From: Candidatus Auribacterota bacterium
GTDB taxonomy: Bacteria; Auribacterota; Ancaeobacteria; Ancaeobacterales; Ancaeobacteraceae
Assembly: GCA_022711655.1 (NCBI GenBank)
Contig: JAKLEM010000002.1
Coordinates: forward strand, 1,098-65,097
Direction of reading: 5' to 3'
Length of the DNA: 64,000 nt
Position 1 is the first letter of the stretch. Each line of letters starts with the position of its first letter. Positions 1 to 29,094 of this stretch are shown one piece after another. The notes below the pieces were generated by a model, which saw only the letters and a list, made by a program, of their open reading frames with translations, ran no database searches and was not told the DNA's origin. The position numbers were made by a program, and so were the translations under genes.

Positions 1-587
1 ACGCCCGAACCGGACACATTCAAGGCCGAACCGCTATTGAGCGTGCCGTTAACCGCCAGCGTACCTGCGCTAACATTCATCCCGCTGCTCATATAGGTCG
101 TCCCGGTACCGCCGATGCTTAAATTGCCGTACGAGGTGACGCTCCCCCACATATTAAGCGTGCCATCGTTCTGTATCGTCTGAGAGCCGCCACTGAACGT
201 CACGGAAGAATTGATCGTGTTGCTGGAGCCGTAGCTATTGTACAGGGCGTCATAGTTCTGCAGGGTGAAGTCTGGCATATTCAAACTTGCGTTGCCGCCG
301 TTGAAATAAATGCTCCCGAAATAGGCCCCGCCGGATCCCCAGACATTATTATTTTCGTTGAAATACAGGTAATCGGAGGATCCAGGAATCGAGAACCCTC
401 CCGAATCCCAGTTCGGCGCGACATCCCACGGCCCTTCGCCGGAATTGAGCGGCGTCGGCGCGATCCACGATTGGGAATCCTCATCCCAATAGGCATCGTA
501 GTCATACCCGCCGGTAAAATCGGCCGCGCTGGCCGCAACGCACATCAGTACCAGACTACAGCAGGCTAATGAGACAAGCGTTTTCAT
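1..587 (-). CDS. Secreted beta-strand-repeat protein, N-terminal fragment (gene runs off the left edge of the window)
   Basis: Absent from the ORF track because there is no stop codon in the window. Minus-strand ATG at 587..585 follows an AAGGGGAA RBS. My translation is MKTLVSLACCSLVLMCVAASAADFTGGYDYDAYWDEDSQSW..., a signal peptide. It continues into Gly/Ser/Asn/Thr-rich repeats (..GTLAVNGTLNSGSALNVSGSG) like those of the giant neighbour. Confidence 0.7.
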   Translation of the reverse strand, partial: MKTLVSLACCSLVLMCVAASAADFTGGYDYDAYWDEDSQSWIAPTPLNSGEGPWDVAPNWDSGGFSIPGSSDYLYFNENNNVWGSGGAYFGSIYFNGGNASLNMPDFTLQNYDALYNSYGSSNTINSSVTFSGGSQTIQNDGTLNMWGSVTSYGNLSIGGTGTTYMSSGMNVSAGTLAVNGTLNSGSALNVSGSG

Positions 588-610
588 CGTATTCCCCTTT
601 TTTGTCCAAC

Positions 611-644
611 AAAAAAACCCCGATCATCGAAAGGATGGCCGGGG
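611..644 (-). terminator. Intrinsic terminator (expression platform of riboswitch copy 1)
   Basis: RNA CCCCGGCCAUCCUUUCGAUGAUCGGGG followed by UUUUUUU. It lies about 25 nt upstream of the start codon at 587. Confidence 0.75.
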
Positions 645-915
645 TCTCAACACCGCGCACAACTACGTGGTGCGCTCACGGCAACTGGCTGCCATCCTCG
701 TACTGCGTTCTGCGTCCCTCGTACTGCGGTTTACACGCTGTACGCAGCACGCTCTACGCTGTACGAGCGAAGGCCCTCTAGCTTTGCAACCCGGCGAATC
801 ATCAGATTCGCGGAGCAGTACCCGCAAGCCGGCGAATCGTATGATTCGCGGACCAACCCCCGTATGGGGACATGGGTACAGTCCCATCCTTTCAGATGGT
901 TTGCCCTTAACTCAA
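611..915 (-). promoter_or_regulatory. c-di-GMP-I (GEMM-I)-like riboswitch leader, copy 1, with a 93-nt insertion at 788..880
   Basis: Minus-strand RNA reads UUAAGGGCAAACCAUCUGAAAGGAUGGGAC-[93 nt]-GCAAAGCUAGAGGGCC...GGAUGGCAGCCAGUUGCCGUGAGCGCAC. It has the GEMM-I core GCAAACC-stem-GAAA-stem-GGGAC, then GCAAAGC, then a 3' segment like GGUAGC..GUUACCG of Vibrio Vc2. About 90% identical by eye to copy 2 over roughly 170 nt. An intrinsic terminator follows. Confidence 0.65.
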
Positions 916-986
916 TTCTTTTGCTCTTCTCCTGTTTTACACTCCTTAAAGATACATACCCTCCTTTTTCCGTCTTCAACTTCTTT

Positions 987-1014
987 TTTATATCTAAGTA
1001 TCGCGTTTTTTCAA
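987..1014 (-). promoter_or_regulatory. sigma70-type promoter for leader copy 1
   Basis: Minus strand TTGAAA (1014..1009), 16-nt spacer, TATAAA (992..987), in an AT-rich island just after the stop of the giant gene. Confidence 0.5.
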
Positions 1015-1035: not shown

Positions 1036-4000
1036 TTATTTCTTCGCGGTGCGGAGTTTCCGCCTCAGGCCGAACCCGATCAGCGGCAGGAGCAGCAGCA
1101 GCGTCGACGGCTCGGGAACCTCCCCGCCGCTTTCCTGCTCGAAGCCAACTCCCTGGAACGCCCCCGTGGACGGGTCGTAATTGCCCCACGCCACCTGGCC
1201 GCCGCCACTGATCGTCGGGTACATCTCGTCGCCCAGTTCCGTCGAGACCGGCGTCAAGATGCCCGTATCCAACGAGTACTCATAGATATCCCAGTCGTCC
1301 AACCGCTGGAACGCGACCAGCGATCCCGTCGTATCCAGCACCGGATACATGTCGCTGTAGTATTTGCCCGCGCCGTCGTCCGCACCGATCAGCTCAGTCA
1401 GGTTCAAGATCGTCTCGGGATCTGCCGACGACCAATAGAAGAGGTTCCATACTTCGTTATCAACGTTCCACCCCTGCCACGCGACGTAATAGCCGCCCGC
1501 TTCGTCGTAGGCCAGCCACGGGCACGCGCCCTCAAGGTTGTCGCCGTAGTTGATCTCTACCTCGATATCGGCCCACCCGATATCCGAGTTATCCCAATCG
1601 CCCGTCGAGAGATTGAACATCTTAAGCAGCGACTTCGTCCCGTTCTCCCCGTAATACTCCAGCACGACCTTGTCTCCGGCCACCGACGGATGACGGTTCG
1701 CCGAGCCGGCGGCGAAATTGGTCCACGTTGATTCACTGGGCTTCTTGTAGAACAGTCCTGCCGCCCCCTCCACCACCATCGTCCCGTTGTATATGGCACA
1801 GCCGCCATCGTACGCCGGCATCGCGCCGTCAAAGACCCGGACACTGCCCTCAGCGCTGGTCCACAGATAGTAGCCGTCGGACTTCCGGTACAGCACCTCG
1901 CCGTTCGACACCGCCGGATGGAACGCAACGCCGGCTTCATTCTCAATAGGAACAGCGGATCCCGGATCGCCGAAGTCGGCTGCGTATTTCAGCGTATTGT
2001 CGTCGACATCGATGAAGGCGCCACCGAACCCGCCTACTTGCTGATCGGCAGCTGCTACCACAGGACGCTCAAACAGCTCCGGCGAACCAACGGGCGGGAA
2101 CGGCGGCAGGTCGTAGCGGAAGACGACGCCCAGCTCATCCTGTCCCGGCCCGCCGTTGCCTGTCGTTCCATACGCGTAGTTGCCTACCAGTGTAATCGCG
2201 CCAGACGGCCCATACCCGCTAGACCGATTGAAGCTGTAAATCAGCTCATATCCCGTTCCATCGGTATTGATCCTGAACATCGCGCCGCTCTCATTTTCGC
2301 CGCCTGCATAGGTAAGCCCGTAGAGCATCCCATCGGGCCCCAACGTCAGCCTGCCATATGGCTGTGCGCCTTCGGGGTATCTACCGTTATCCGGGTCATA
2401 CTGGAAAGCATATATCCGGTCGAAAGCGGGGTTGTCGGGATCGCTCAGATCGAGCCGGTATATGGTCCCTGTCCCTCCGTTAAACCAGTCGGATGACGTC
2501 ATCCCGTAAAACATGCCATCGTTAGCCTTCACCAGGCCGCCATAAGGATAGCCGCCATCGGTATTCTGATCGAAATCCCACAGCTTCGTATAGGCGTTCC
2601 CATTGGTCGTATCGATCCTGAAGATCGTCCCGCCGTAGGTGCCGGTCGAATTGCCGTAATATGTCGTTCCGTACAACTTTCCAGCATCGTACAACAACTG
2701 GCCGTACGGATACGCACCATCGGTAAATGACGCGTCAAATGTGTGCAACGGTGTATACGTTTCTGTCGCGGGATCAAAGCTGAACACCGTACCGTTACCC
2801 GTGTTGCTGTCCTGATCTATCCCGCCATTATAGGCCACGCCGTACAGGATTCCACCCGCGCCAGCGGTCAATTGCGTATAGGGATTGGCGCCTTCACTGC
2901 CGGAGTAATTGAACGGCGAATAGGTCATCATCGCGCCCGTTGCGGGATCAAGCTTGAAGATCGCGCCGTTACCATTCGCTCCTCCGTACGCTGTCGTCCC
3001 ATACAGCACCGCGTTCACATCGTCATAGACCATAGACCCATATTGCGGGCTGCTGCCTTCCCCATTATTCTGATCGAGCTGATACACGATCATGAAGGCG
3101 TCATTAGCCGTCGTGTCGACCTTGAATATGCCGCCGCTATAGGTCTGATTATCGCTTGAATAGGTACCGTACAGGACACCGTTCACGTTCGTCAGGTCCG
3201 AACATGAATAACCCGCTCCGTTATCCTTATCGTAAGAAAAGTCATTGACGATGTGGTAGTTCGGGTCGGGCGGCAGGCCGTACGTCAATAGGAGATCGGT
3301 GCCCGACTCGGACCGGCTGAGCGACAGCTTGGACGGGTTGGCATCGTAGAACCAGCTTGATGCGTCCAACTCGATGGTATCCGTTATATTCTCGGGCATA
3401 CCAGCCGAAGCCGTCGCGATCGTCCATGTATAGTAACCCGAGGGATCGAATACAGCAGGAGTACCCGAGCCACCCTCTCCCTCCTGCGAAAAACTGCTCA
3501 TAAGCTGCGCCCCGCCGCCGCCGCCCGAAGACACTAATTTCAAGGTGAACTTATCGTCCGTGATGTTAACATTCAGCGCCCCATCGATATTGATAAAGCT
3601 ATACCCGTCTCCGGCGTTGCCGCCGACATCGCTGACCCTCCACACAAAGCTGCCGCCGCTGTCCCAGACCTGGTCCTTGGTGTTCGTCTGGCACGGGGCC
3701 ATATCCCAGGTCCACCAGTAGCCGTATTTCTGTATATATTTCATCGTCTGCGGATCGATCGAACCGTTCCTCTTTATCTCGACCGAGCCGAACATCCCCG
3801 ACCCGCCTATGATACCCCCATTCTCGACCGTTGTCGCCGAAGAGGAGATATCCCCGTCGACGGTGAGGCGCCCGTTGTCGGTTACGTTCGTGGGGCCGGT
3901 GTAGGAGCACGTGCTTTTAACGGTGACATCGCCGGTGATAGGATTGCCCCACTCATCGGTGTAACCGGTTACGGTCACCGATGCGGCAGTGCTGCGCTCT

Positions 4001-7000
4001 CCCAATTCGGCATTGACCGTCCCGCTGCGGAGCTGGTAATCGTCGGCTTTCACCTTCCCGCCGCCCGCGCTGTCGCTGATCTGGCCGCCCATCAGCGTAA
4101 CGGTGCTCGCGCTTTGCTGGTGCCCGGCTATATCCAGCGTCCCGGCATTGACAGTCACCGCGCCGCCGTCAGAAAGGGCATTATTGTTGCCCAGCGCAAC
4201 CGTCCCAGCGCCATTTATCACAGTCCCGCCGGTATATTGCGGCGTACCGTTCAACGTCATCGTCGTCTGGTCTATGACCGATGTGACCACTGCCCCTGTC
4301 CCGCTGATCGAGTTGACGTCGATCGATTCCACGTCGGCGGTATTGGACAGAACGAGGACTGCGTTGTTCTGTATATTGCCCTGTACGCTCGGAGTATACA
4401 TGACCAGCGTGCCTTCGCTGACCGTCGTGCCGCCGGAGTAGGTGTTCGTGCCGGACAGGGTCACGGTGCCATCGGTCGTCTTGACAAGCTCTCCACCGGC
4501 AAGCGATACGCTAGCACTGCCACACTGGAAATCGAACAGATCCGCCTCAATTGTGCCCGCTCCAGTGATATTTCCCGGCTGAACCCAGGTCCCTCCCCAC
4601 GAATAGGTACCGGAGATCTGCTGCAACGAGACCTCATTCGCCTCGAGAGAACCTCCTTGGTCAATATTCAGGGTGCCGCCGTTGACGACAACATGATTAA
4701 CAGTATCCGAATGATCCACCATATTTATCGTGGCGTTAATTGTCACCGTGCCGATATCAGGCAATACGTTATCTGCGCCATAGAGCAATATCCCCTCGTT
4801 GACCATCGTGCCGCCCTCGTAGGAATTCTCGTTCGAGAGGGTGAGCGTCCCGGCGGTGCTCTTCGTCAGCGCGGCGGCGCCGCTGAGCTTTGCGGCGATC
4901 GTGCCGCCATAGGCATTTATGACATTATTCACCGTAAGCGTGCCTGTTCCCAACACCTCGGCCTGCCCGTTAAGACTGCCGTAGGATCCCTTAGGAGTTC
5001 CGCCGCCGACATCCAGTTCGTTGACAGTCTGGTCAAAGGACGAAATATCGAGAGCACCGTGGAATGCCTCTTGTTCGTGCCATATATAATATGGAGGCTG
5101 ATCCAGGTACTCAGGGCCCCAATTGGTATAACCTTCCACAGAAACAACCCCCTCGGAAGGAAGGGCATTCGCCGCACCGCATACCAGCGTGCCTTCGTGC
5201 AGCAGCAGCGTCCCGGTCCCGGAGATCTTGCCGCTGAACGTCGAGACCCCGTCTCTCTTTGATAACGTCAGAGTGCCGGCTCCCATCAGCACCTCGCCTT
5301 CTCCGGACAGTGCGACAAATGTTTGATCGTCACCATTCATATCCAGCACACCCTCGGAGCCAACGGTCATCATGGAGGAGACTCCCAGAGCGTTCGTCCC
5401 GGCAGTCACCAGCGTCCCGCCATTCACCGCGATGCTGCCTGTATAATTGCTTGAGCCGGTCAACGTCATTGTGCCATTACCCGCCTTGATCAGATATGCC
5501 TTCGTCTCGTTATCCGTGTACGGGTGGTACTCGTTTATCTGTCCTGAAAAAACCGTGTCTGTGCCATCTGCGCCAACGGTAAGCTGGTAGGAGCACAGAT
5601 AGCTCCCTCCTAAGTAAAGATCGCCAGCGCCCGCGAGAGATCCGATCGTGTCGCTCAGATCTAATTCATATGTAGAATGATTGCCGGCAGACGCCCACAT
5701 CTGCGTACCCGCCTCCAACACGACCGCCGAGGCATCGCTCATGACATCCGATAAGAACGGAGACGCATACAATGCCCCCTGCGTGACATGCGTTTCGCCT
5801 TCATAGCTGTTCGAACCGGATAACGTAAGACTGCCCGCCCCCGTTTTAATAAGCGCGCCGCTGCCGCCCATCGCGCCCGCATATGTGCCGGACGCAGACA
5901 TGTCGAACATAACGGCCGCATTATTCGTGATCGCGCCCTGTATCCCGCTGGCATTCCCCTTCAGCGTCCCATCGTTCACCGTCGTCCCGCCGCTGTACGA
6001 ATTGCCGCCGGCGAGTGTCAGGATACCAACGCCGTTCTTGATCAGCGAGCCGGCGTCGCCGATAGCACCATTGATGGTGGTCGCACCGTCACCCGATACT
6101 GTCAGTACTTTCCCTTCAGTGTCGACAGTACCATTGACCGTCAGGGACCCGGCGCTGTTGAAGTTTTCCCAGAGCGAATCGTTGCCGAGGATAATCGGCA
6201 CGTTGATGACGTCTGCCGATGCCGACTGCCGCGTGATCCCCGTATTGATCGTCAGGCTCTGACTGCCGTTCACCGAGAAACCGCTGGTGTTATCGAAGAT
6301 CATGTTATTTACGATGGCCGGCTGAGTATCGTTCAGGGAGACCGTCCCGCCGCTTGCGAATTTGACGTTCTTTCCTTCGCCGGGAGCGTTGCCGCCCTGC
6401 CAGTTCGATCCCGACCACCAATTCGTGTTTGTCCCGCCGTCGCCGCTCCATATGTAGACCGGCGTCGTATCCGGGTTGAACTTGAGGACAACGTCATTAC
6501 CCAGCGTATCCAGCGAGAAGGTACCGCCATTGAGAGGGTTGGCGAAATTGCTGTAATTCAGCGTGAACTTGTCGGCTGAGAAGCTCCCCAGGCCGTTGGA
6601 GGCGCTCAGGATCGTCCATGTATGCGTTGTCGTATTGACAAAATCGTGCACCAGCCCTGCCGTGTTATCCTCTTTCAGCGAGGTGATGTCGATCATGAAC
6701 CGGCTCGACGGCGTGCTGGAAATCGTCAGGTTGGCGGTGGTCATCAGGTCCCATTCAGTTCCCGCAGTGCCGACAACGCCATTGACCTCCCAGAGATAAT
6801 GGCCGCCGCTCGCCAGCGTCAGGTCGGTCATCGCGAGCGTTCCCGGGCTGGTCCCTGGTGACACGGTACCCCCGTCATTCACGACCACGCCTGCAACTGT
6901 GCCCGCACCCGCCAATGTCGTCCCGCTGTTCGTCGTAAAGGTCGTCAGGTTGCCGTTGCCGCTCACGATCAGCTTGCCCTCGTTGATATCGACGCCGCCC

Positions 7001-9399
7001 GCAACCGTGTTGGAACCCGACATCGTCAGCGTACGTGCTCCGTCCTTGACCACCTTGCCGGATCCGGAAATGCTCCCCGTAAACGCGCTGTCAAGCGCCC
7101 ACTGATTGAAATTCATGACAGCATTGTTCTGGAACGCCCCCCCCAGGTCCCATGCATTTAATGACAATGTTCCACCCGTTATGATCGTTCCTCCAGTGTG
7201 GCCCAACGTGCTGTAACTTAAGTTCAATGTGCCGTCTCCCACTTTCTCCAGGCTCCCGCCGGCACCATAAATGTATCCGAGAAGATTGCCGCTCCCGACA
7301 GTAAGGCGGCCACTGCCGAGCAGGATCTGGCAAGAATTTGCACCCGTCAAATCGGCGACTGTTTGGTTGTGGCCGTCCAGGTCTAAAACAAAATAGCGGT
7401 TACTCCCCCCCGCAATTGACGTTCCGGCTGGGAGAACATCGTTCGCACCAAGACGGAGCGTTCCCCAGTCCATCGTCGTTGCGCCATTGAATGTGCAGGG
7501 GCTCGATATCGTTACCGTGCTTGGCATGCCGCCCGAGCCGATGTGAATGCCCGCGTTACCCGCAAGTTCAACCGCAACAGTCCCGTTGCGAAGTGCGAAT
7601 TCGGCCGCCGTGGTCATCAGCTTCCCACTGCCCATGATCGTCCCTTCAGTAAGCGTCACCGCGCCGACAGTTTCATTGTTGTTGCCGATATCAAGCGTGC
7701 CGCCGTTCTGGATAGTCAATCCGTAGTAATCCGGCAACGTATTAGCTGCTGCCAACACGAGCTTCCCCCCGGAAACAACTGTACCGCCATAGTTGTTGCC
7801 CTGGCCGGTGCGGATGATCGTCCCGGGGCCCTCCGTGATGAACTTTCCTGTCCCGTCGATAGCACCGCCCAACGTCAGGTTCGTACCCGCCGCGGCTTTG
7901 ATCGTTGCGGTGGTAGTATTAATTGTGATCGGCGCGTTGAATGTGTTGTCCCCGACAAGGTTCTCCATACCGTTCGACAGCGTAACCCGGTTGCCGTCGA
8001 TCAGATAGCCGCCGTCATTTAATGTGATCTTCCCGAACGACGAACCTGCCGTATAATTGTTGGTGTTCGTTTTCTGAGCGGCAGCGCCAAACAAGATCGC
8101 ATCATTCGTTCCCGGCGCCCAATCCCAGTTATTTCCGTTCGTCCAGGTGCCGTCGCCGCTTGCCAGGCCGCTCCAAATGCACGGACCCAGGCTGAGCCGC
8201 ACCTTGAAGATCGTCCCGAGGTTGCCGTCGCCACCAGCGCTAGTCATGCCGTAACCAGTGTTACCCGAAACAACAAGGTTGCCCCACGGGTCCTTTCCGT
8301 CGTTCGCCCCGCCGGCGAATTTGTGCAGGATGGTATAGCCGCTGCCGTCCGTTCCTACTGAGAAAATGGTGCCGTTACCTTCACTGCCGTCCCCATAAAC
8401 GCCGATACCGCCGTCGCTCGTCATGCCGTAAAGCGTGTTCCCGGACAGCGTCAAACTACCTCTCGGGATCGCCCCATCGTTAGCTGTGCCGACAAATGAA
8501 TGCAGCAACGTCACCGCGCCGCCCGTTTCGCTGACCTTGAATACCACGCCGCGGCCGTCGCCGTCGTCGAGGGTGCTGCCACCGTGTGAGGTCATGCCGT
8601 AGAGGACCCCGTCTGCGGCGGTCACGTCACTATAGTATGGATACGATCCGTCGGCCGTACCGCCGGCAAAATTATGGATCACCGAATACTGCGACCCGCT
8701 AACGTCGGTCTTGAAGATCGTTCCCATGTCACCGACGCCGCCATTGCCGCCCGTTGTCGTCATACCGTAAAGGTTGCTACCCGATACCGTCAGACTCCCG
8801 ACCGGCGCACTGCCGTCGCTTGGGGCACCGGTAAAGTAATGCAGTATTGTGGTCGGGCCACCGCTCGTACTAACCTTGAAGATTGTTCCCGGTTTATAAT
8901 TATCACCCGCATCCCACCCTCCTTCGGTCATTCCGTAGAGATCGCTACCGACCAAAACCAGGCTGCCGTTAGGGCTTACACCATCACCGGGCGCACCGGT
9001 GAACGTGTGCAACGCCGTAAATGCATTACCGTTAGCCGTGTCGATTTTAAAGACATTACCGCCGCCTCTATACGTCATGCCGTAAATATTCGAGCCATCA
9101 ACCAGTAGCGTCCCTCCCCAGGGATTTCCCGATGCGCTGCCGCTAAAATTGTGCAGGATCTCGACAGGGCCTCCGTTGACGCTCATCCTGAATACAGTCC
9201 CCTGATCCGAGGTTCCGCCACTGTACGTCATACCGTAAAGATAATTATTTGAAAGGGTTAACGAACCATTCGGGCTACTCCCGTCGCTTGTCCCTCCAGC
9301 AAATTCGTGGAGCAGCTGATCGGTCGCCCATGAGACGTTCGTCACGCAACACATCGCTGATACGAGAACTGCCCACATAAGCCTCATTGCGTTTCTCAT
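1036..9399 (-). CDS. Giant (2787 aa) secreted PEP-CTERM protein with two GloVer-type repeat blocks and a long run of autotransporter-associated beta-strand repeats
   Basis: One uninterrupted 8364-nt ORF with a signal peptide (MRLMWAVLVSAMCCVTNVSWA). Seven ..LYGMTxxGG..GT(I/V)FK.. repeats lie at aa ~30-400. GxGTLTLSGxNxYxGGTxVxxGTL-type repeats fill aa ~420-1850. A second block of seven LYG(T/M/V/L)T repeats lies at nt ~2100-3240. The C-terminal sorting signal is GGEVPEPSTLLLLLPLIGFGLRRKLR. Confidence 0.9.
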   Translation of the reverse strand: MRNAMRLMWAVLVSAMCCVTNVSWATDQLLHEFAGGTSDGSSPNGSLTLSNNYLYGMTYSGGTSDQGTVFRMSVNGGPVEILHNFSGSASGNPWGGTLLVDGSNIYGMTYRGGGNVFKIDTANGNAFTALHTFTGAPGDGVSPNGSLVLVGSDLYGMTEGGWDAGDNYKPGTIFKVSTSGGPTTILHYFTGAPSDGSAPVGSLTVSGSNLYGMTTTGGNGGVGDMGTIFKTDVSGSQYSVIHNFAGGTADGSYPYYSDVTAADGVLYGMTSHGGSTLDDGDGRGVVFKVSETGGAVTLLHSFVGTANDGAIPRGSLTLSGNTLYGMTSDGGIGVYGDGSEGNGTIFSVGTDGSGYTILHKFAGGANDGKDPWGNLVVSGNTGYGMTSAGGDGNLGTIFKVRLSLGPCIWSGLASGDGTWTNGNNWDWAPGTNDAILFGAAAQKTNTNNYTAGSSFGKITLNDGGYLIDGNRVTLSNGMENLVGDNTFNAPITINTTTATIKAAAGTNLTLGGAIDGTGKFITEGPGTIIRTGQGNNYGGTVVSGGKLVLAAANTLPDYYGLTIQNGGTLDIGNNNETVGAVTLTEGTIMGSGKLMTTAAEFALRNGTVAVELAGNAGIHIGSGGMPSTVTISSPCTFNGATTMDWGTLRLGANDVLPAGTSIAGGSNRYFVLDLDGHNQTVADLTGANSCQILLGSGRLTVGSGNLLGYIYGAGGSLEKVGDGTLNLSYSTLGHTGGTIITGGTLSLNAWDLGGAFQNNAVMNFNQWALDSAFTGSISGSGKVVKDGARTLTMSGSNTVAGGVDINEGKLIVSGNGNLTTFTTNSGTTLAGAGTVAGVVVNDGGTVSPGTSPGTLAMTDLTLASGGHYLWEVNGVVGTAGTEWDLMTTANLTISSTPSSRFMIDITSLKEDNTAGLVHDFVNTTTHTWTILSASNGLGSFSADKFTLNYSNFANPLNGGTFSLDTLGNDVVLKFNPDTTPVYIWSGDGGTNTNWWSGSNWQGGNAPGEGKNVKFASGGTVSLNDTQPAIVNNMIFDNTSGFSVNGSQSLTINTGITRQSASADVINVPIILGNDSLWENFNSAGSLTVNGTVDTEGKVLTVSGDGATTINGAIGDAGSLIKNGVGILTLAGGNSYSGGTTVNDGTLKGNASGIQGAITNNAAVMFDMSASGTYAGAMGGSGALIKTGAGSLTLSGSNSYEGETHVTQGALYASPFLSDVMSDASAVVLEAGTQMWASAGNHSTYELDLSDTIGSLAGAGDLYLGGSYLCSYQLTVGADGTDTVFSGQINEYHPYTDNETKAYLIKAGNGTMTLTGSSNYTGSIAVNGGTLVTAGTNALGVSSMMTVGSEGVLDMNGDDQTFVALSGEGEVLMGAGTLTLSKRDGVSTFSGKISGTGTLLLHEGTLVCGAANALPSEGVVSVEGYTNWGPEYLDQPPYYIWHEQEAFHGALDISSFDQTVNELDVGGGTPKGSYGSLNGQAEVLGTGTLTVNNVINAYGGTIAAKLSGAAALTKSTAGTLTLSNENSYEGGTMVNEGILLYGADNVLPDIGTVTINATINMVDHSDTVNHVVVNGGTLNIDQGGSLEANEVSLQQISGTYSWGGTWVQPGNITGAGTIEADLFDFQCGSASVSLAGGELVKTTDGTVTLSGTNTYSGGTTVSEGTLVMYTPSVQGNIQNNAVLVLSNTADVESIDVNSISGTGAVVTSVIDQTTMTLNGTPQYTGGTVINGAGTVALGNNNALSDGGAVTVNAGTLDIAGHQQSASTVTLMGGQISDSAGGGKVKADDYQLRSGTVNAELGERSTAASVTVTGYTDEWGNPITGDVTVKSTCSYTGPTNVTDNGRLTVDGDISSSATTVENGGIIGGSGMFGSVEIKRNGSIDPQTMKYIQKYGYWWTWDMAPCQTNTKDQVWDSGGSFVWRVSDVGGNAGDGYSFINIDGALNVNITDDKFTLKLVSSGGGGGAQLMSSFSQEGEGGSGTPAVFDPSGYYTWTIATASAGMPENITDTIELDASSWFYDANPSKLSLSRSESGTDLLLTYGLPPDPNYHIVNDFSYDKDNGAGYSCSDLTNVNGVLYGTYSSDNQTYSGGIFKVDTTANDAFMIVYQLDQNNGEGSSPQYGSMVYDDVNAVLYGTTAYGGANGNGAIFKLDPATGAMMTYSPFNYSGSEGANPYTQLTAGAGGILYGVAYNGGIDQDSNTGNGTVFSFDPATETYTPLHTFDASFTDGAYPYGQLLYDAGKLYGTTYYGNSTGTYGGTIFRIDTTNGNAYTKLWDFDQNTDGGYPYGGLVKANDGMFYGMTSSDWFNGGTGTIYRLDLSDPDNPAFDRIYAFQYDPDNGRYPEGAQPYGRLTLGPDGMLYGLTYAGGENESGAMFRINTDGTGYELIYSFNRSSGYGPSGAITLVGNYAYGTTGNGGPGQDELGVVFRYDLPPFPPVGSPELFERPVVAAADQQVGGFGGAFIDVDDNTLKYAADFGDPGSAVPIENEAGVAFHPAVSNGEVLYRKSDGYYLWTSAEGSVRVFDGAMPAYDGGCAIYNGTMVVEGAAGLFYKKPSESTWTNFAAGSANRHPSVAGDKVVLEYYGENGTKSLLKMFNLSTGDWDNSDIGWADIEVEINYGDNLEGACPWLAYDEAGGYYVAWQGWNVDNEVWNLFYWSSADPETILNLTELIGADDGAGKYYSDMYPVLDTTGSLVAFQRLDDWDIYEYSLDTGILTPVSTELGDEMYPTISGGGQVAWGNYDPSTGAFQGVGFEQESGGEVPEPSTLLLLLPLIGFGLRRKLRTAKK

Positions 9400-9490
9400 A
9401 CACCCTCCCTTGCTTTCGGATCGTTCAATGTGATTTTCATTAGTTATCCTTTATAGTGAACCGCACCGCGCGGTCATTTTCGAAGGCAAA

Positions 9491-9700
9491 TAAAAAACCC
9501 CGATCATCGAAAGGATGGTCGGGGTCTCAACACCGCGCACATCACGTCGTGCGCTCACGGCAACTGGCTGCCATCCTCGTACTGCGTTCTGCGTCCCTCG
9601 TACTGCGGTTTATACGCTGTACGCAGTACGCTATACGCTGTACGGGCTAAGGCCCTTCAGTTTTGCGTCCCATCCTTTCAGATGGTTTGCACTTAACTTA
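9491..9700 (-). promoter_or_regulatory. c-di-GMP-I (GEMM-I)-like riboswitch leader, copy 2 (no insertion)
   Basis: Minus-strand RNA UUAAGUGCAAACCAUCUGAAAGGAUGGGACGCAAAACUGAAGGGCCUUAGCC...GAGGAUGGCAGCCAGUUGCCGUGAGCGCAC. Compare Vc2 GGCAAACCAUUCGAAAGAGUGGGACGCAAAGCC...GGUAGCGGGGUUACCG. It has a GAAA tetraloop hairpin (CCAUCU/GGAUGG). An internal loop CCUUAG/GAUGG resembles the GAAA receptor CCUAAG/UAUGG. A terminator follows. Confidence 0.8.
9492..9524 (-). terminator. Intrinsic terminator (expression platform of riboswitch copy 2)
   Basis: RNA CCCCGACCAUCCUUUCGAUGAUCGGGG followed by UUUUUU, about 90 nt upstream of the giant gene start at 9399. Confidence 0.75.
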
Positions 9701-9785
9701 TCTCTTCTGCATTCCTCCTCTTTTCCTTTTCCTCCGCTGAACAACCAATAGCAAGAATACACATTTCTTTTTTACTTCAAGATTT

Positions 9786-9815
9786 ATTATATATCGGATC
9801 GCCATATTTTGTCAA
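9786..9815 (-). promoter_or_regulatory. sigma70-type promoter for leader copy 2
   Basis: Minus strand TTGACA (9815..9810), 18-nt spacer, TATAAT (9791..9786), in an AT-rich divergent intergenic region. Confidence 0.6.
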
Positions 9816-9864
9816 GGCTTATTTACTTGATGTCTCTATTCAAAAAAGTTACTATCGAACTTAT

Positions 9865-11790
9865 ATGATACCGGCAATCAAGCGTCTGATAGGAACAACA
9901 AGGTCAAAGGCTTTCGCCTATACCGCTATCATCCTTGTCGCCGCTTATGCCGCCCTCTCGCCGTCACTACAGAACGGTTTCACCAACTGGGACGATGACA
10001 CTCTTATCCAGCGAAACCCCCATATCATTGGGCTTTCCGCAGCGAACATTACGGCTATCTTCACCCTGCGTAACATCGAGAGCTATTATCCCCTTCCGCT
10101 GCTCTCTTTCGCGGCCGAGCGGGCTTTGTTCGGCCCGTCCCCCAAGGCGGTCCACGCCGTCAACCTGGCCGTGCACATGCTCAACTGCATGGCCGTCTGC
10201 ATCCTCGCGCTGCTCCTGTCGGGCAGCGCCGCAACCGCTGTTACCTGCGCGATCCTGTTCGGCGTCCACCCGCTTAACGCCGAGGCCGTCGCCTGGGCCG
10301 CGGGGCGGGTGATCCTCCTCTACGCTTTTTTCTCGCTTGTCACGCTCGCGGCCTACGTCCGCTCGCAAAAAGGAGGCCCGGCTGTCTGGTTCTACCTTTC
10401 GATCGTCACTGCTATCCTGGCATGTCTCTGCCACCCGGCCGCAATCGTCCTGCCGCTGCTTCTCCTGGCATGCGACTATCTCATCAAGCCAACCGTCTCC
10501 CTCCAGGACTCGGAGATGAAGGCGCCGTTCATCGCAATTGCGGCGGCATATGCCGCCGCCCTGTTCTGGCTTTTCCGCCCGCAGCAAGCGGCAGACGGCA
10601 CGTCCCGCTCCATGCTCGACGCCGGCCTCCTGACGGTCCATGGTATCGTATCGTCTTTCGTAAAGGCATTCGTGCCTGCAAATCTTTCCTGTTATTATCC
10701 GCCGCCTCCGACGGGGCAGCTGCCGTGGGAATATCTCCTCGCGCCGGCCGGTCTCCTGGCGATCGCGGCGGCGGCATACTGCCTGACCCGGCGGTCAAAG
10801 ACCGCTATGTTCGGGTTCCTGTTCGCGGCCACCGCGCTGGCCGCGCCGGCCGTCGTTTCCCAGGGTCGATCCTATCGGGCCGACTATTTCTGTTATCTCC
10901 CGCTGTTCGGCATCATCTATCCGTGCGCCGCAGGGATAGCGGCGCTCTGGCGGGGCGGGCCCGACAGGCGGATCTTGCGCGCGGCAACGGTGTCCATAGT
11001 TGCGGCGGCAGTCTGCGCCGCGATCGTCCTCTCGCGCGGCCGCTGCGCAGAGTGGAAAGACAGCATCACGCTCTGGGAGAGCTTTTTCAGGGCAAACGGG
11101 GCTTCCTGCACGAGCACCACGCCGTACATCAACCGCGCCAACGCATATATCGACACGAAACGCTATGACGAGGCGATCGCAGACCTGACCGCCGCGCTGG
11201 AGATCGACCCCGACCATCCCGGCGCCCTGTCCAACCGGGGCAACGCCTATTTCTTCAAGGGAGACCTGACGCGCGCGCATAACGATTACTCCCGGTCGCT
11301 CAGCATCGAGCCGAACTCCGCCAAAACGATCTACAACCGCGGCAACGTCCGGATCGCACGGCGCGACCTGACCGGAGCGATCGGCGATTATACCCGCGCG
11401 ACGAAGATCAGCCCCGGCTACGCGGAGGCGCACAACAACCTCGGGAATGCGTACGCCGAATCGGGAGACCCCGAACGGGCCGAAACCGCGTACCGCCGGG
11501 CGATACGCTCGAGGCCCGACTTCCCCGACCCGTACCTCAACCTCGGCAACCTGTTCTCCGCCTCCGGCAGGCCGGCGCGGGCAATCGTCAACTACGACAG
11601 GGCCCTCGCGCTCAAGCCGGACTGGGAGCAGGCCCTCCACGGCCGCGCCGTGGCGCATTTCCTGTTAAAGGAGTATGACCTGTCGAGACGGGACGTCGAG
11701 CGTATGCGGTCGCTCGGTTACGCCGTCAAGCCCGAATTGATCAGACGGCTGAACGCGGCGGCCGGAGAAACCACGGAGGTAAAACAATGA
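9865..11790 (+). CDS. Polytopic membrane protein with C-terminal TPR repeats (TMTC/DUF1736-like GT-C glycosyltransferase candidate)
   Basis: About 400-aa multi-TM N-terminal domain with an acidic FTNWDDDTLIQRNP motif in the first loop. The C-terminus has 6-7 TPR units (..NRANAYIDTKRYDEAIADLTAALEIDP..). Paralogous to 34096..36003. Confidence 0.75.
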   Translation: MIPAIKRLIGTTRSKAFAYTAIILVAAYAALSPSLQNGFTNWDDDTLIQRNPHIIGLSAANITAIFTLRNIESYYPLPLLSFAAERALFGPSPKAVHAVNLAVHMLNCMAVCILALLLSGSAATAVTCAILFGVHPLNAEAVAWAAGRVILLYAFFSLVTLAAYVRSQKGGPAVWFYLSIVTAILACLCHPAAIVLPLLLLACDYLIKPTVSLQDSEMKAPFIAIAAAYAAALFWLFRPQQAADGTSRSMLDAGLLTVHGIVSSFVKAFVPANLSCYYPPPPTGQLPWEYLLAPAGLLAIAAAAYCLTRRSKTAMFGFLFAATALAAPAVVSQGRSYRADYFCYLPLFGIIYPCAAGIAALWRGGPDRRILRAATVSIVAAAVCAAIVLSRGRCAEWKDSITLWESFFRANGASCTSTTPYINRANAYIDTKRYDEAIADLTAALEIDPDHPGALSNRGNAYFFKGDLTRAHNDYSRSLSIEPNSAKTIYNRGNVRIARRDLTGAIGDYTRATKISPGYAEAHNNLGNAYAESGDPERAETAYRRAIRSRPDFPDPYLNLGNLFSASGRPARAIVNYDRALALKPDWEQALHGRAVAHFLLKEYDLSRRDVERMRSLGYAVKPELIRRLNAAAGETTEVKQ

Positions 11791-21115: not shown

Positions 21116-22405
21116 TTAATTATCGGCGTTAACGCCACTATCTTTTGTCGCCGCCCGGCTGCGCTGGCGGCGGAATTCCTCAGCGGCGGCCGGGAACGGC
21201 GACAGTACGCGCCCGAGCACCCCCTGCACGTGCGAGATGCAGATACCGTAATTGGTGACGGCGACGCCGCGCTCCCTCGCCCGCCGGATCCGCCAGAGCA
21301 TCTCCCGGCGCGTCAGCATGCACCCTCCGCAATGGATCACCAGCTTGTACGATTCAAGATCGGCCGGGTAGTCACGGCCGGAAAAGGTGTCGATACAAAC
21401 GTCTTTCCCCAGGTACTGTCGAAGCCAGCGCGGTATCTTGACCCTGCCGATATCGTCTTCGAGCGGATGGTGGCTGCACGATTCCGCGACCAAAACCCTG
21501 TCTTTTGCCGAGAGGCGGTCGATCGCGGCGGCGCCGCGTACCATCTCGACCAGGTCGCCCTTATTGCGCGAGAACAATATCGAGAAGGTGGTGCAGCGGA
21601 CGCCGGGCGGCGTGTCGGCTACCATTTTCAGGACGACCTGCGAATCGCAGACGACCAGGTCGGGCGGCCTCTTCATATTGGCGAGCGCCGCTGCGTACTC
21701 CCGCTCCTTGACGACAAGCACCGACGCGTCGTTGTCGAGCGCGTCCCTGATCGCCTGCACCTGGGGAAGGATGAGCCGCCCCTTCGGCGCCTGCAGGTCG
21801 ATCGGCACGATCATGACGGCGGTGCCGCATGAAGGGACTAAATCGCCGAGAAGCGCCGGGGCGTTCAGGAAATCGTCGGGACATACCTTTATGAGCAGCC
21901 CCTTGAATGCGTCGACGGCATGTTCGCGGGCGCCGGCGTCGGCGCAGGAGCATGTCATACAGCCGGCGGACAGCCCGGAAACGGTTTGCATGAAATCATC
22001 GCGGGGGGGGTGCCGGTCGATCTTGTTGACGACGACGATCAGCGGCGCGGCGTGCCGGCGCGCTTCGGAGGCAACCCGCTCTTCGAACTCGCCCCAGGCC
22101 CCGGGCTCGACGACCAGCACATATATGTCGGCGCGGGGAAAGATCTTCTCGGTTTTTTCGAGACGCCTGCCGGCGAGCCCGGAAACGTCGTCGAGGCCCG
22201 CCGTATCGAGGAACAGCACCGGGCCGATCGGCAATAGCTCCATCGGCTTCTCGACGACATCGGTCGTCGTCCCGGGGACCGGCGAGGTGATCGCGATATC
22301 CTGTCCGGCGATATAATTCAGGAAGCTCGACTTCCCGACATTGGTCCTGCCGAAGATGCCGATCTGGAGGCGCAGCGATTTAGGCGTCTTTTCGTTCATG
22401 GTCAT
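21116..22405 (-). CDS. hydF: [FeFe]-hydrogenase maturation GTPase HydF
   Basis: GTPase motifs GRTNVGKSS, DTAGLDD, NKID. C-terminal cluster motif CSHH...HCGGC. The start (22405 or 22399) overlaps the end of the aspA-like gene. Confidence 0.85.
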   Translation of the reverse strand: MTMNEKTPKSLRLQIGIFGRTNVGKSSFLNYIAGQDIAITSPVPGTTTDVVEKPMELLPIGPVLFLDTAGLDDVSGLAGRRLEKTEKIFPRADIYVLVVEPGAWGEFEERVASEARRHAAPLIVVVNKIDRHPPRDDFMQTVSGLSAGCMTCSCADAGAREHAVDAFKGLLIKVCPDDFLNAPALLGDLVPSCGTAVMIVPIDLQAPKGRLILPQVQAIRDALDNDASVLVVKEREYAAALANMKRPPDLVVCDSQVVLKMVADTPPGVRCTTFSILFSRNKGDLVEMVRGAAAIDRLSAKDRVLVAESCSHHPLEDDIGRVKIPRWLRQYLGKDVCIDTFSGRDYPADLESYKLVIHCGGCMLTRREMLWRIRRARERGVAVTNYGICISHVQGVLGRVLSPFPAAAEEFRRQRSRAATKDSGVNADN

Positions 22406-23774
22406 ACCCCAGAGAGGTGAGGCGTTCCGGCGAAAGGAGATCGTCGATCGCGGCGCGCCCCAGCGCGCGGGCAAGGAACGCCCTGACGTCTGTCTCGCCC
22501 GATGCGCCGAATTCTTTCACCAGCGCCGCGGCGCGGTCGTATCCGACAGCCGGCAGCAGCGCGGTCACGATGGAAACGCTCCGGTCTACGGTCTCCCGGC
22601 ATCGCTCCTCGCCGTGGCGGATACTACGGACATGACCCGCCAGGATCTCGTCGGCCCGCCGCAGGAGCCCGAGCGACTCGAGGAGCGCATGCGCCGCCAG
22701 CGGGAGGAACTCGCTTATCTGAAGCGTCCCGCGGGACACGGCGTCGGCCACCAGCGCGTCGTTGGCCACCGCTTTCATCCCCGCCTGGATCGCCATCTCG
22801 CATATCACCGGGTTGACCTTGCCCGGCATGATCGACGAGCCCGCCTGCGCGGCGGGGAGGGCGATCTCGCCCGAGAGGTTCATCAGGCGCAGGTCGCCCG
22901 CGATCTTGATCAGGTTTACCGCGTGCGCCTTGAGGATCGCCGAGGCCTCGACGAAGGGGTCGGCGTTCGCGGTCTCGTCGACCAGGTTGTCGGCGCGCGC
23001 GAGCCCGAGACCGGTGATCTCACGCAGCCGTTCGACTGCCAGAAAGATGAACTGCCGCGGCGCCGTCAGGCCGGTGCCGACCGCGGTCCCGCCGAGGTTC
23101 ACCACGCGGAGCCGCTCTTCGCACTTGAAGGTCCGCCATCGGTCGCGGCCGAGCGCTCCCGCGAAACCGGAAAACACCGCGCCGAGCGTCATCGGGACCG
23201 CTTCCTGGAGCTCGGTCTTCCCTACCATGACGACGCGGGCAAACTCCTTCTCTTTTTGCTGGAAGGCCCCCTGAAGATCCTCTGCGGCTTTGCTCAGGGA
23301 ACGGAACCCCCGGATTGCGGCGATCTTCAGCGCCGTGGGATAGACATCGTTGGTCGACTGGTGGCGGTTGACGTCCTCGATCGGGTGGACCAGCGCGTAA
23401 TCGCCTTTTGTTCCGCCGAGCAGTTCGATGGCGCGGTTGGCGATCACCTCGTTGACGTTCATGTTGGTCGAGGTCCCGGCGCCGCCCTGCAGCGCGTCGA
23501 GGGGGAACTGATCCGAGAATCCGCCCGCGGCGATCTCGTCGCACGCGCGGAGCATAGCCGATTCTTTATCGGCGCCGAGGAAGCCGAGCTCGCGGTTCGC
23601 CCGGGCGCAGGCCTTTTTCACCGCCGCCAGCGCCTGTATCAGCGCCGGGGCGACGCGCAGGCCGCTCACGGAAAAGTTCTCGAGGGCGCGGACGGTATGG
23701 ATGCCGTAGAAGGCGTCCGGCGGGACGCGCCGCTCGCCCAGCAGGTCTCGCTCGATCCTGTTATTCGAATTCAT
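22380..23774 (-). CDS. Aspartate ammonia-lyase / class II fumarase family protein embedded in the hyd maturation genes
   Basis: 464 aa. Family signature GSSIMPGKVNPV. Confidence 0.8.
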   Translation of the reverse strand: MNSNNRIERDLLGERRVPPDAFYGIHTVRALENFSVSGLRVAPALIQALAAVKKACARANRELGFLGADKESAMLRACDEIAAGGFSDQFPLDALQGGAGTSTNMNVNEVIANRAIELLGGTKGDYALVHPIEDVNRHQSTNDVYPTALKIAAIRGFRSLSKAAEDLQGAFQQKEKEFARVVMVGKTELQEAVPMTLGAVFSGFAGALGRDRWRTFKCEERLRVVNLGGTAVGTGLTAPRQFIFLAVERLREITGLGLARADNLVDETANADPFVEASAILKAHAVNLIKIAGDLRLMNLSGEIALPAAQAGSSIMPGKVNPVICEMAIQAGMKAVANDALVADAVSRGTLQISEFLPLAAHALLESLGLLRRADEILAGHVRSIRHGEERCRETVDRSVSIVTALLPAVGYDRAAALVKEFGASGETDVRAFLARALGRAAIDDLLSPERLTSLGYDHERKDA

Positions 23775-23849
23775 GACACGCCCCTTGAGAGAAAGAAGCC
23801 GGGACGTTTATCCCCCGCCCCGGCCTCTTCTTTCCGATACAACGCCCGA

Positions 23850-24107
23850 CTATTTCATCGCGATCTCGACAAGCTTGGTCTTCACGCCCTTGATGAGGTT
23901 CAGCTTGCGGGCCATCTCCTTGATCTTCGCGGGCGCGCCGACGAGCTCGAGGATCAGGAGGCCGTGGTTGGAGCACTTGTCGAGGACGCCGTCGTGTATG
24001 CCGAGGCGCGTCTTGATGAGGCAGCCCCAGAACGTCAGGATCTGCTGGACCTTCGGCGCCTCTTCTTTTCTCTTGTCCACCATCACGATCAGGATCGTCT
24101 TCTTCAT
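23850..24107 (-). CDS. TM1266-type small putative iron-only hydrogenase system regulator (ACT/NikR-C-like)
   Basis: Trimmed to MKKTILIVMVDKRKEEAPKVQQILTFWGCLIKTRLGIHDG... ATGA overlap with the hydE stop (24104..24107). Confidence 0.7.
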   Translation of the reverse strand: MKKTILIVMVDKRKEEAPKVQQILTFWGCLIKTRLGIHDGVLDKCSNHGLLILELVGAPAKIKEMARKLNLIKGVKTKLVEIAMK

Positions 24108-25216
24108 CTGCCGCCCTCCTTTTGGTTTTTTTTCAACGAATCGCCTTTGCCGTAATCGACGCACCTGCCGATCGACTTCGCCATCCCCTCGATGCAGAAG
24201 GCGCACTGGCCGACCGGCTCCTCCACGCAGCGCTTGTCCGGGTAGATCTCGTACATCTTGCGGTACGGCGAGGGCGTGAAGTTCGGCATCATCACGTTCG
24301 CACCGGCTTTGAGGCCGTCTATCCGGTGGTCTTTTCCCATGCTCCCCAGCGCCGTGGTCGCGGGCAGATGCGCGTTCTTCGTCACGATCCGCGTCAGCGC
24401 GACCGCCTTGAGGACCATGTCGACCGAGCCCCGCGCCTGACCGGCGAGCGCGGTCTGCCCGTGCGGGATGAACGGGCCGATCCCTATCATATCAAAATCG
24501 TTCTCTTTGAAGAACAGGATATCGCGCGCGATCGCCAGGGGGGTCTGCCCGGGGAGCCCGATCAGGTCGCCCGAACCGGTCTGGTAGCCGAGCTCTTTCA
24601 GGTCGCGCAGGCACCTGAGCCTGTTACCGAAGCTCATGCCGGGGTGGAGCGCCGCGTAGAGCTTTTCGTCGGTGGTCTCGATCTTGAGGAGATAGCGGTC
24701 GGCCCCCGCCTCGCGCCACAACGCGTACGCGTCGCGGCTCTTTTCGCCGACCGAAAGGGTGACCGAGACGTCGAACCGGGACTTGACGTCGCGGACGACC
24801 TCGGCGAACAAGGCGGGGTCGAGCTTCGACGACTCGCCGGACTGCAGGACGACCGTTTTGAGGTTGTGAGACACGACCCGTCCAACGCTCTCGATAATTT
24901 CTTCTCGCGACAGCGTGAAACGCGGCAGCCTCGCGTTGTTCCTGTTCAGGCCGCAGTAGTGGCAGGTCCCGTCGCACTCGTTGGAGAACTCGACGATCCC
25001 CCGCAGGAGGATCCCCTCGCCCATCTGCTCCTGACGGACGCGGTCGGCGAAGGCGTAGATCTTTTCGAGGTCGCTCTTATCGGTTACGGAGAGCAGCGCG
25101 ACGAGATCCTCGAGGGACGGGCGATCCGCCGACGAGACCCGCGCAAGGGTCTGTTCGAACTCCATCTGGTTGCTTATTTCCTTCATCGATACACCGCCTA
25201 ATGACCAATGATCCAA
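24104..25216 (-). CDS. hydE: [FeFe]-hydrogenase maturase HydE (radical SAM)
   Basis: CDGTCHYCGL radical-SAM motif, BioB-like, in hyd gene context. The start may be the internal MKEISN.. at 25186. Confidence 0.85.
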   Translation of the reverse strand: MDHWSLGGVSMKEISNQMEFEQTLARVSSADRPSLEDLVALLSVTDKSDLEKIYAFADRVRQEQMGEGILLRGIVEFSNECDGTCHYCGLNRNNARLPRFTLSREEIIESVGRVVSHNLKTVVLQSGESSKLDPALFAEVVRDVKSRFDVSVTLSVGEKSRDAYALWREAGADRYLLKIETTDEKLYAALHPGMSFGNRLRCLRDLKELGYQTGSGDLIGLPGQTPLAIARDILFFKENDFDMIGIGPFIPHGQTALAGQARGSVDMVLKAVALTRIVTKNAHLPATTALGSMGKDHRIDGLKAGANVMMPNFTPSPYRKMYEIYPDKRCVEEPVGQCAFCIEGMAKSIGRCVDYGKGDSLKKNQKEGGR

Positions 25217-26672: not shown

Positions 26673-26722
26673 GCACCGCTTTCTCTCTGCAGCGGGTGAC
26701 CGGGCAGCGGTTTTTCCGCACC

Positions 26723-27226: not shown

Positions 27227-27238
27227 GACGTGTCTCCT

Positions 27239-29041: not shown

Positions 29042-29094
29042 GACATCTCCTTTTTCGCGCCGCCCGGCGGGACCTCCCGCCGGCCGCGGCGGCG

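Follow-up and report, generated by a model that had tools for sequence, protein, structure and literature searches.

Putative transcription-attenuation cassettes built on class I c-di-GMP riboswitches precede secreted PEP-CTERM and repeat-protein genes in an uncultured Auribacterota bacterium

Introduction

OFF-type riboswitches that act on transcription are classically known from the class I cyclic di-GMP (c-di-GMP) riboswitch Cd1 of C. difficile and from the S-adenosylmethionine (SAM-I) and thiamine pyrophosphate (TPP) riboswitches of Firmicutes. For the same class, here called c-di-GMP-I or GEMM-I (Rfam RF01051), the prototype Vc2 of Vibrio cholerae provides a precedent, acting as an off-switch (bioRxiv 10.1101/617340), and four members of the class have been reported before PEP-CTERM and VPLPA-CTERM genes within 18 kb of Methylophaga nitratireducenticrescens GP59 (PMC12530212). 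Here, a 64,000-nt stretch of Candidatus Auribacterota bacterium DNA (assembly GCA_022711655.1, contig JAKLEM010000002.1, positions 1,098 to 65,097 of the forward strand; hereafter the window, with positions counted from its first nucleotide) was analyzed around an element, unit A, that lies on the minus strand in front of a gene for a 2787-aa secreted PEP-CTERM protein. Unit A and its two homologues in the window, units B and C, very likely represent c-di-GMP-I-class riboswitches acting through termination, judged from sequence comparison, and the fuller picture of three transcription-attenuation cassettes with a putative OFF mechanism is considered probable.

As in GP59, several class I riboswitches lie within a few tens of kilobases, each flanking a gene for a protein with a PEP-CTERM-type sorting signal; the window differs from GP59 in stemming from an uncultured anaerobe ([FeFe] hydrogenase, sulfatases, Gloeo_Verruco), in its giant 2787-aa target, and in its decorated aptamers and terminator-based platform. 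With Vc2 and RF01051 the units share their site in a 5' untranslated region and a two-hairpin aptamer of the form GC-AAA-stem-GAAA-stem-GAC-GC, including the A47 linker, a receptor-like internal loop in P2, and a 3' strand AGCC..GUUGCCG with C92. They depart from Vc2 and RF01051 in the U20 and 62-nt P2 extension of unit A, in the 93- and 44-nt modules in the P1 internal loop of units B and C, and in a weak closing helix, apparently replaced by a local 3' hairpin CGUGG-N6-CCACG. As in the classical OFF switches and Vc2 (10.1101/617340), a ligand-stabilized aptamer would withhold the antiterminator strand and the downstream intrinsic terminator would form; in the window units, however, the shared strand is an internal hairpin (P1 tetraloop and 3' arm) instead of the closing helix, and the distance to the terminator reaches about 250 nt. 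The combination of a class I aptamer with an unusually long platform ending in rho-independent termination is also seen in Bc1 of Bacillus thuringiensis (PMC11218506), which has two terminators 28 bp apart, whereas the window units have one terminator after variable spacer hairpins. Because riboswitch clusters before PEP-CTERM and VPLPA-CTERM genes have already been reported in GP59, the units are of a known kind: new members of a known riboswitch class with lineage-specific variations, namely U20, junction insertions, a P2 extension, and a predicted P1-based antiterminator.

Results and Discussion

Unit A

On the minus strand of positions 9300..10000, the order from 5' to 3' is promoter, purine-rich leader, GCAAACCAUCUGAAAGGAUGGGACGCAAAAC..., a long GC-rich stretch, ...GGCAGCCAGUUGCCG, a small hairpin, and GACCCCGACCAUCCUUUCGAUGAUCGGGGUUUUUU; the GGGAGGG-N6-AUG of the 2787-aa open reading frame (ORF) comes 90 nt past GACCCCGACCAUCCUUUCGAUGAUCGGGGUUUUUU. 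A sequence-only reading of this DNA, made without database searches, had proposed a TTGACA-18-TATAAT promoter, a c-di-GMP-I aptamer, and a strong intrinsic terminator at this place, and all three were borne out. The promoter consists of TTGACA (9815..9810), an 18-nt spacer, and TATAAT (9791..9786), so that 9786..9815 (minus strand) agrees with the consensus at 12/12 positions. The leader (9702..9779, minus strand) holds a Shine-Dalgarno (SD)-like motif, AGGAGGA..GCAGAAGA. For the aptamer (9556..9701, minus strand), the cmsearch with RF01051 that the sequence-only reading had suggested gave a match from 9701 to 9556 with 58.2 bits, against a gathering score of 35 bits, and E = 8.2e-11 over model positions 1-87, the full model, using permissive filters on 9350..9950; when the whole window was searched, the match stayed at E = 8.7e-09. 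RF01051 was also the best-scoring model of its clan on unit A. Run over the entire window with its default settings (gathering thresholds and standard filters), the Rfam scan gave no hits, because the terminal part of P2 holds 62 nt in unit A and 3 in the model; the filters fail, and the result does not mean absence.

The aptamer contains the expected substructures. Hairpin P1 in GEMM nomenclature (9667..9690, minus strand) reads GC AAA CCAUCU-GAAA-GGAUGG GAC with a GAAA tetraloop, and this GNRA tetraloop is present together with the conserved internal loop GC-AAA / GAC-GC (GCAAACCAUCUGAAAGGAUGGGAC-GC). The long P2 extension (9575..9646, minus strand; 62 nt compared with 3 in the Rfam model) folds as an extended stem-loop and is common to units A and B. 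At the position of the GAAA tetraloop receptor of type 1 GEMM RNAs in P2, CCUUAG/GAUGG is found in unit A, CCUUCG/GAUGG in unit B, and CCUUAU/AAAGG in unit C, each of which differs from the 11-nt motif CCUAAG/UAUGG. Downstream of the aptamer follow a hairpin GCGCAC..GUGCGC, alternatively CGUG..CACG (9533..9556, minus strand), which is the counterpart of the CGUGG-N6-CCACG hairpin of the relatives described below, and an intrinsic terminator (9488..9526, minus strand) with a 10-bp stem, a CUUUC loop, and U6 directly after it (-19.5 kcal/mol). A simple terminator scan overlooked this terminator because of one C.A mismatch in its stem.

The CGUGG-N6-CCACG hairpin (40084..40099 in unit C, 9533..9556 in unit A, and in the relatives) begins at two nucleotides that normally belong to the aptamer closing helix. 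Complementarity to the 5' partner of that helix is poor, and the local hairpin may take its place.

Units B and C

Homologous units had been placed at 611..1014 and 39971..40322 and were located at 610..1014 (unit B) and 39969..40322 (unit C), both on the minus strand. Unit B has a TTGAAA-16-TATAAA promoter (987..1014), an aptamer in which the shared core is combined with a 93-nt insertion and a long P2 extension (677..915; recognized from split RF01051 hits, alignment, and folding), and a terminator containing CCAUCCUUUC (610..646, -18.6 kcal/mol). Its RF01051 match is split into 915..863 and 822..677, with 19.5 and 19.1 bits, below the gathering score. Unit C has a TTGACA-17-TATAAT promoter (40294..40322), an aptamer with a 44-nt insertion (40096..40233; RF01051 32.4 bits, E = 1.9e-4, below the gathering score), the post-aptamer hairpin CGUGG-AGCGAU-CCACG (40084..40099), and a terminator (39969..40019, -17.1 kcal/mol) with the 5' arm CCAACCUCAUUUCGGAU, which is complementary to AUCCGAAAGGGUGG of P1; all of these features of units B and C are on the minus strand. 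Units B and C fall short of the gathering score because their insertions cannot be spanned by the model.

A three-way alignment gave an invariant core consisting of the P1 hairpin GCAAACCAUC(U/C)GAAAGG(A/G)UGGGAC, the junction GCAAA(A/G)CU, and an identical 3' strand, GGCAGCCAGUUGCCGUG. In all three units the promoter lies about 100 nt before the aptamer, a terminator made of a GC-rich hairpin with U6-U7 directly after it follows, and the gene is co-oriented on the minus strand. Motif searches at 0 mismatches detected exactly 3 copies in the 64 kb, against 0.49 that chance would give, and pattern searches allowing up to 3 mismatches detected no further ones in the same 64 kb. On sequence grounds, unit A is a member of the c-di-GMP-I family, and units B and C are clear homologues with insertions. 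The sequence-only reading had spoken of the same unit before all three genes; the shared conserved core agrees with this, but the large insertions within the aptamers of units B and C, which place them below the gathering score, do not.

Relatives in metagenomes

The window loci were also found on short contigs of several metagenomes and in the NCBI metagenome-assembled genome (MAG) GCA_035453075.1; anaerobic-digester samples with this organism include JGI 3300009771 and 3300025902 and ENA ERZ795055. A metagenome scan for the P1 sequence gave 120 loci, and 99 of 121 P1 matches were ordinary GEMM-I RNAs with the canonical GGGAC-GCAAA junction. Six loci belong to the lineage of the window (L128, L171, L197, L215, L216, and L245), and five of these, L171 being excepted, carry the CTTGACAAAA..TATAAT promoter of unit A (with N13/14 between the two elements in L128, L215, L216, and L245), the same 3' strand, and a terminator. 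The CGUGG-N6-CCACG hairpin directly follows the aptamer in 5/6 relatives and appears as CGCGG/CCGCG in L216, a covariation; in the more distant L171, neither a terminator nor the CGUGG/CCACG hairpin was seen. L171 has two GEMM-I aptamers (3006..3112 and 5726..5865) about 2.7 kb apart, the second of which stands directly before a gene for a 377-aa protein with a pilin/PilX-like hydrophobic N-terminus, with no terminator between them. The SD-like purine motif (A)GGAGGAG..GCAGAAGA is located 25-33 nt before the aptamer core in all leaders of the lineage (9702..9760, 916..960, and 40234..40270 on the minus strand of the window; L128, L215, L216, and L245), and no conserved ORF was found behind it in the lineage leaders. 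A separate scan of genome contigs (596 Gb) with the 15-mer GGCAGCCAGTTGCCG suffered from too short a pattern, and of the loci retrieved L091 alone proved to be a genuine GEMM-I RNA, of the canonical type.

The genes downstream of the relatives encode PEP-CTERM proteins (L128 and L245), a signal-peptide protein (L216), and a giant protein of >2527 aa with Gloeo_Verruco and beta-strand repeats that is 26-31% identical to the giant protein of the window (L215). The association of aptamer and secreted-protein gene is conserved across paralogues and relatives. This bears on the suggestion that the unit functions chiefly as an independent small RNA of about 290 nt, either trans-acting or serving as a c-di-GMP sponge. 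Such a role would suit a unit with its own strong promoter and strong terminator, and short RNAs containing Vc2 do accumulate in V. cholerae (bioRxiv 10.1101/617340); however, 9/9 copies in the lineage are directly 5' of, and co-oriented with, a secreted-protein gene without an evident promoter of its own, which makes a mainly stand-alone RNA extremely improbable.

Hairpin insertions in the P1 internal loop

In units B and C the P1 nucleotides of unit A are kept, but an insertion separates GAC from GC. The insertion site lies between GGGAC and GCAAAGC inside the conserved P1 internal loop, between the equivalents of Vc2 C44 and G45. The 93-nt insertion of unit B (788..880, minus strand) is structured as a branched stem plus a hairpin (free energy -46.7, z = -4.7), and the 44-nt insertion of unit C (40155..40198, minus strand) as two abutting hairpins (free energy -20.0, z = -2.7). 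In the predicted folds, the inserted hairpins fill the insert exactly and are flush with the junction. A 91-nt homologue of the unit B insertion occurs in L128, with base changes that preserve the stems, and four unrelated contigs (L127, L139, L201, and L234) carry an insertion of 46-70 nt at exactly the same point, each folding as two abutting hairpins with no unpaired ends (z -3.5 to -5.6). The RF01051 scores of these insertion-bearing RNAs were 44.5 bits for L127 and 40.1 bits for L201, both above the gathering score, and 33.3 bits for L234.

The original GEMM description called the P1 internal loop highly conserved and did not mention insertions (PMC1950547). Taken together with the low RF01051 scores of units B and C and with the duplicated hairpin inside the unit B insertion, this could be read as decay: units B and C would be relics with aptamers broken by repetitive-hairpin insertions, and only the promoter and terminator would matter. 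This reading is judged very unlikely, in view of the intact state of every conserved core nucleotide flanking the insertions, the flush fit of the inserted hairpins, the presence of a two-hairpin insertion at the same phosphodiester in the four unrelated contigs (two of them above the gathering score), and the retention of the unit B insertion in L128 with stem-preserving changes. The junction instead looks like a tolerated, possibly functional, expansion site of the GEMM-I scaffold.

Ligand-contact positions

In Vc2, G20 makes contact with one of the ligand guanines; the equivalent nucleotide of unit A is a U (9691, minus strand), as determined from the Rfam consensus alignment, with the register checked against the RF03167 structure line. 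In the context AAGU-GCAAACC, this U immediately precedes the GC at the start of P1; in units B and C its place is taken by a G. The U20 of unit A was present in four other assemblies as well, identical over 343-416 nt, and in 0/121 other GEMM-I RNAs with this P1 (117 G, 4 A). The other contact positions are retained: the AAA linker with the intercalating A47 reads GCAAAAC in unit A and GCAAAGC in units B and C, and C92, the Watson-Crick partner of the other ligand guanine, occurs within GUUG-C-CG in all three units (consensus gCCg; register cross-checked on RF03167).

Two variant families of the same clan and scaffold were considered and set aside. The consensus of the c-di-GMP-I-GGC variant (RF03167) has G47 (GCGAA, GACGCGAA), and all units and relatives have A47 (GCAAA). 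RF03167 outscores RF01051 on L171, L197, L215, and L216 because its model treats the top of P2 as a loop, and the scores of the relatives (26.7-56.1 bits) are below the RF03167 threshold of 59. The cGAMP (cyclic GMP-AMP)-sensing GEMM-Ib class has A20, and the window units have U20 (unit A) or G20 (units B and C).

Wild-type Vc2 binds c-di-GMP with an affinity of about 0.011 nM (PMC9049102), and its G20U mutant binds at low micromolar affinity (PMC4686816). By analogy with these measurements, U20 probably weakens c-di-GMP binding by unit A by orders of magnitude, and unit A has the top Rfam score of the three but, as predicted from its sequence, probably the lowest affinity for c-di-GMP. Unit A may thus be a high-threshold sensor; less probably, it is blind or retargeted. 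In the stronger form of the latter view, unit A no longer senses c-di-GMP physiologically and is a constitutive attenuator or a sensor of another ligand, for example another cyclic dinucleotide. Besides the low micromolar affinity of Vc2 G20U, this would be in keeping with the presence of U20 in 5/5 assemblies and its absence from all 121 other GEMM-I RNAs with this P1, with the use of uracil at G20 or C92 in binding-site mutants serving as knock-outs (bioRxiv 10.1101/617340), and with the finding that G20A shifts the specificity of Vc2 towards cGAMP, making it bispecific (PMC6140456). On the other hand, the remaining aptamer is canonical at 58.2 bits, with A47 and C92 kept, micromolar c-di-GMP is within the physiological range, the paralogues with G20 use the same platform, and U20 is one substitution peculiar to this lineage, with nothing to suggest a U20 subclass. 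A complete loss of physiological c-di-GMP sensing by unit A is accordingly regarded as improbable, and a high-threshold sensor is preferred. Graded response thresholds among the three genes owing to U20 are conceivable, if slightly on the doubtful side.

Expression platform

The decamer CCAUCCUUUC in the 5' arm and loop of the unit A terminator (9509..9518, minus strand) is complementary to GAAAGGAUGG of P1 and is the predicted antiterminator strand. The CCAUCCUUUC/GAAAGGAUGG pairing is found in units A and B, L215, L128, L216, and L245, with 10 contiguous complementary bases in units A and B. In unit C, CCAACCUCAUUUCGGAU pairs with AUCCGAAAGGGUGG, and in L197 UCCUUUCGGAU (plus CCA) pairs with AUCUGAAAGGAUGG; in these two, the pairing amounts to 8-11 bp and reaches 14 paired P1 bases, with one compensatory change between L197 and unit C (A13-U to G13-C). 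The spacer between aptamer and terminator (30-130 nt) is not conserved and the rest of the terminator stem varies too, so that P1 is the sole conserved partner of the terminator arm.

Folding predictions were made for transcripts of different lengths. When transcripts were cut before the 3' arm of the terminator, the minimum free energy (MFE) structure had P1 invaded by the terminator arm in 8/8 lineage members, and the invaded state was favored by 0.7-9.3 kcal/mol over the structure with P1 forced; in a shuffled-arm control, just 0-3 of 100 attained the observed pairing. In the MFE structure of the full-length transcript, P1 and P2 coexist with the inserted hairpins, the post-aptamer hairpin, and the terminator, and the antiterminator state is 0-9.9 kcal/mol above this aptamer-plus-terminator state, with a tie in L216. 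In these models, a gap of 0-9.9 kcal/mol could be tipped by the ligand. RNAduplex of the terminator against the entire upstream leader did not discriminate from shuffles.

In the mechanism proposed, each cassette opens with a strong sigma-70-type promoter and a purine-rich leader of about 90 nt. The aptamer and a short conserved hairpin come next, separated by a spacer of variable length from the intrinsic terminator, and beyond it lies the ribosome-binding site of a gene for a secreted protein of the PEP-CTERM or repeat type. In the absence of ligand, the terminator arm would invade P1 as it emerges, with the undocked tetraloop as a toehold, and the resulting antiterminator would let RNA polymerase read through into the gene. 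Bound c-di-GMP would hold P1 in the aptamer fold, its tetraloop docked on P2; the terminator would then form and transcription would stop. OFF polarity is predicted because the 5' arm of the terminator is complementary to the tetraloop hairpin P1, and a liganded P1 would not be open to invasion. High c-di-GMP would then shut down these surface proteins, and unit A, with its U20, would respond only at much higher c-di-GMP than units B and C.

Several points weigh against this mechanism or against c-di-GMP sensing as such. c-di-GMP usually induces adhesins and matrix proteins and does not repress them, and its general up-regulation of surface adhesins would favor an ON switch. P1 is a stable local hairpin formed 150-300 nt before the terminator, and its invasion faces a kinetic barrier. 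In 111 other GEMM-I RNAs with the same P1, complementarity between P1 and terminator was not enriched over controls, and the platform is therefore specific to this lineage. Part of the conservation of CCAUCCUUUC may stem from recent shared descent, since the lineage amounts effectively to 2-3 independent terminator designs. Units B and C score under the RF01051 gathering score, and U20 could abolish sensing by unit A outright instead of tuning it. Finally, in the commonest published GEMM design the terminator overlaps the 3' strand of P2, and such RNAs are ON switches (PMC1950547).

The last point leads to a rival of opposite polarity, in which the same riboswitch would favor read-through upon c-di-GMP binding via another pairing. 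It would accord with the original GEMM analysis, in which the terminator was usually found to compete with the 3' strand of P2 and ON switches were predicted (PMC1950547), and with GP59, in which most c-di-GMP riboswitch transcripts are higher in biofilm (PMC12530212). The terminators of the lineage, however, are self-contained, lie 30-130 nt after P2 without overlapping it, and coexist with the folded aptamer in the MFE structure; moreover, the terminator arm has no conserved partner other than P1, whose disruption destroys the aptamer. ON polarity is hence considered unlikely. OFF polarity through the exchange between P1 and the terminator is modestly favored by the modelled structures. A broader proposal, that this lineage reveals undescribed GEMM-I variation, comprises the recurrent two-hairpin module between C44 and G45, a natural U20 aptamer on a giant adhesin-like gene that would have a high threshold or another ligand, and the use of a tetraloop hairpin as an antiterminator strand read via docking; it is speculative and, taken as a whole, rather doubtful.

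Regulated genes

Gene A (1036..9399, minus strand) encodes the 2787-aa secreted protein, which has seven PATR and 12 Gloeo_Verruco repeats, autotransporter-type beta-strand repeats, and a PEP-CTERM tail; an exact look-up of this protein found no record. Gene B (3..587, minus strand) encodes a signal-peptide protein and runs off the window edge. Gene C (38794..39909, minus strand) encodes a 371-aa orphan PEP-CTERM protein with no other domain, for which a homologue search of 5.8 billion clusters returned only the protein itself. The 2787-aa and 371-aa proteins possess the features of PEP-CTERM (TIGR02595 / PF07589), namely a C-terminal PEP motif, a hydrophobic helix, and a basic tail. These two tails are the only complete ones in any frame of the window and are nearly identical (..GGEVPEPSTLLLLLPL..RRK..). 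A 14-codon upstream ORF (MKITLNDPKAREGV; 9396..9440, minus strand) with its own AAGGA ribosome-binding site ends in a UGA that shares nucleotides with the AUG of the 2787-aa gene (AUGA), so that the two may be translationally coupled downstream of the terminator.

The exclusive association of the units with secreted or PEP-CTERM genes, as stated in the sequence-only reading, was found again: exactly three copies exist, each before such a gene, with the C-terminus of gene B beyond the window edge. That reading took this to imply a dedicated second-messenger regulon. The exclusive placement of the three units supports such a regulon, but a regulon of this type is not new (PMC12530212). As also stated there, no GGDEF, EAL, or HD-GYP gene occurs in the window; none was detected in Pfam scans of approximately 47 ORFs chosen by G+C content at third codon positions (GC3). 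A 739-aa protein (53838..56057, minus strand) combines MshEN (7e-20) and a T2SSE secretion ATPase (1e-127) with a response-regulator receiver at its C-terminus (3.5e-29). MshEN being described as a c-di-GMP-binding domain, this protein is a candidate c-di-GMP protein receptor in the window. This protein, U20, the insertions of units B and C, and the complementarity of P1 and terminator had gone unnoticed in the sequence-only reading.

If the proposed control is confirmed, an uncultured anaerobe joins the organisms in which PEP-CTERM or giant surface proteins are under direct RNA-level control by c-di-GMP, and several sensors, probably unequal in sensitivity, occur in one window. The default thresholds and filters of Rfam missed all three copies, and a negative default scan should not be read as absence. 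Metagenome surveys likely undercount decorated c-di-GMP aptamers because peripheral insertions of 44-93 nt are not modelled. The insertion site, U20, and the P1-based antiterminator would inform on how far the GEMM-I scaffold can be altered close to its ligand pocket.

Other genes in the window

Two paralogous-looking tetratricopeptide repeat (TPR) proteins of about 640 aa are encoded at 9865..11790 and 34096..36003, both on the plus strand. The first is divergent from the unit A promoter and has a weak match to PrsT, the TPR protein of the PEP-CTERM system (68 bits against a cut-off of 312). The second heads a glycosyltransferase (PMT_2) cluster that ends beside the unit C gene. An [FeFe]-hydrogenase cluster (21116..30945, minus strand) contains the large subunit, NuoE- and NuoF-like partners, and the maturases HydE/HydG (radical SAM) and HydF, and its gene content indicates a fermentative anaerobe. 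It is adjoined by genes for a Rex-like repressor (33295..33930) and an sCache-HAMP histidine kinase (31448..33298).

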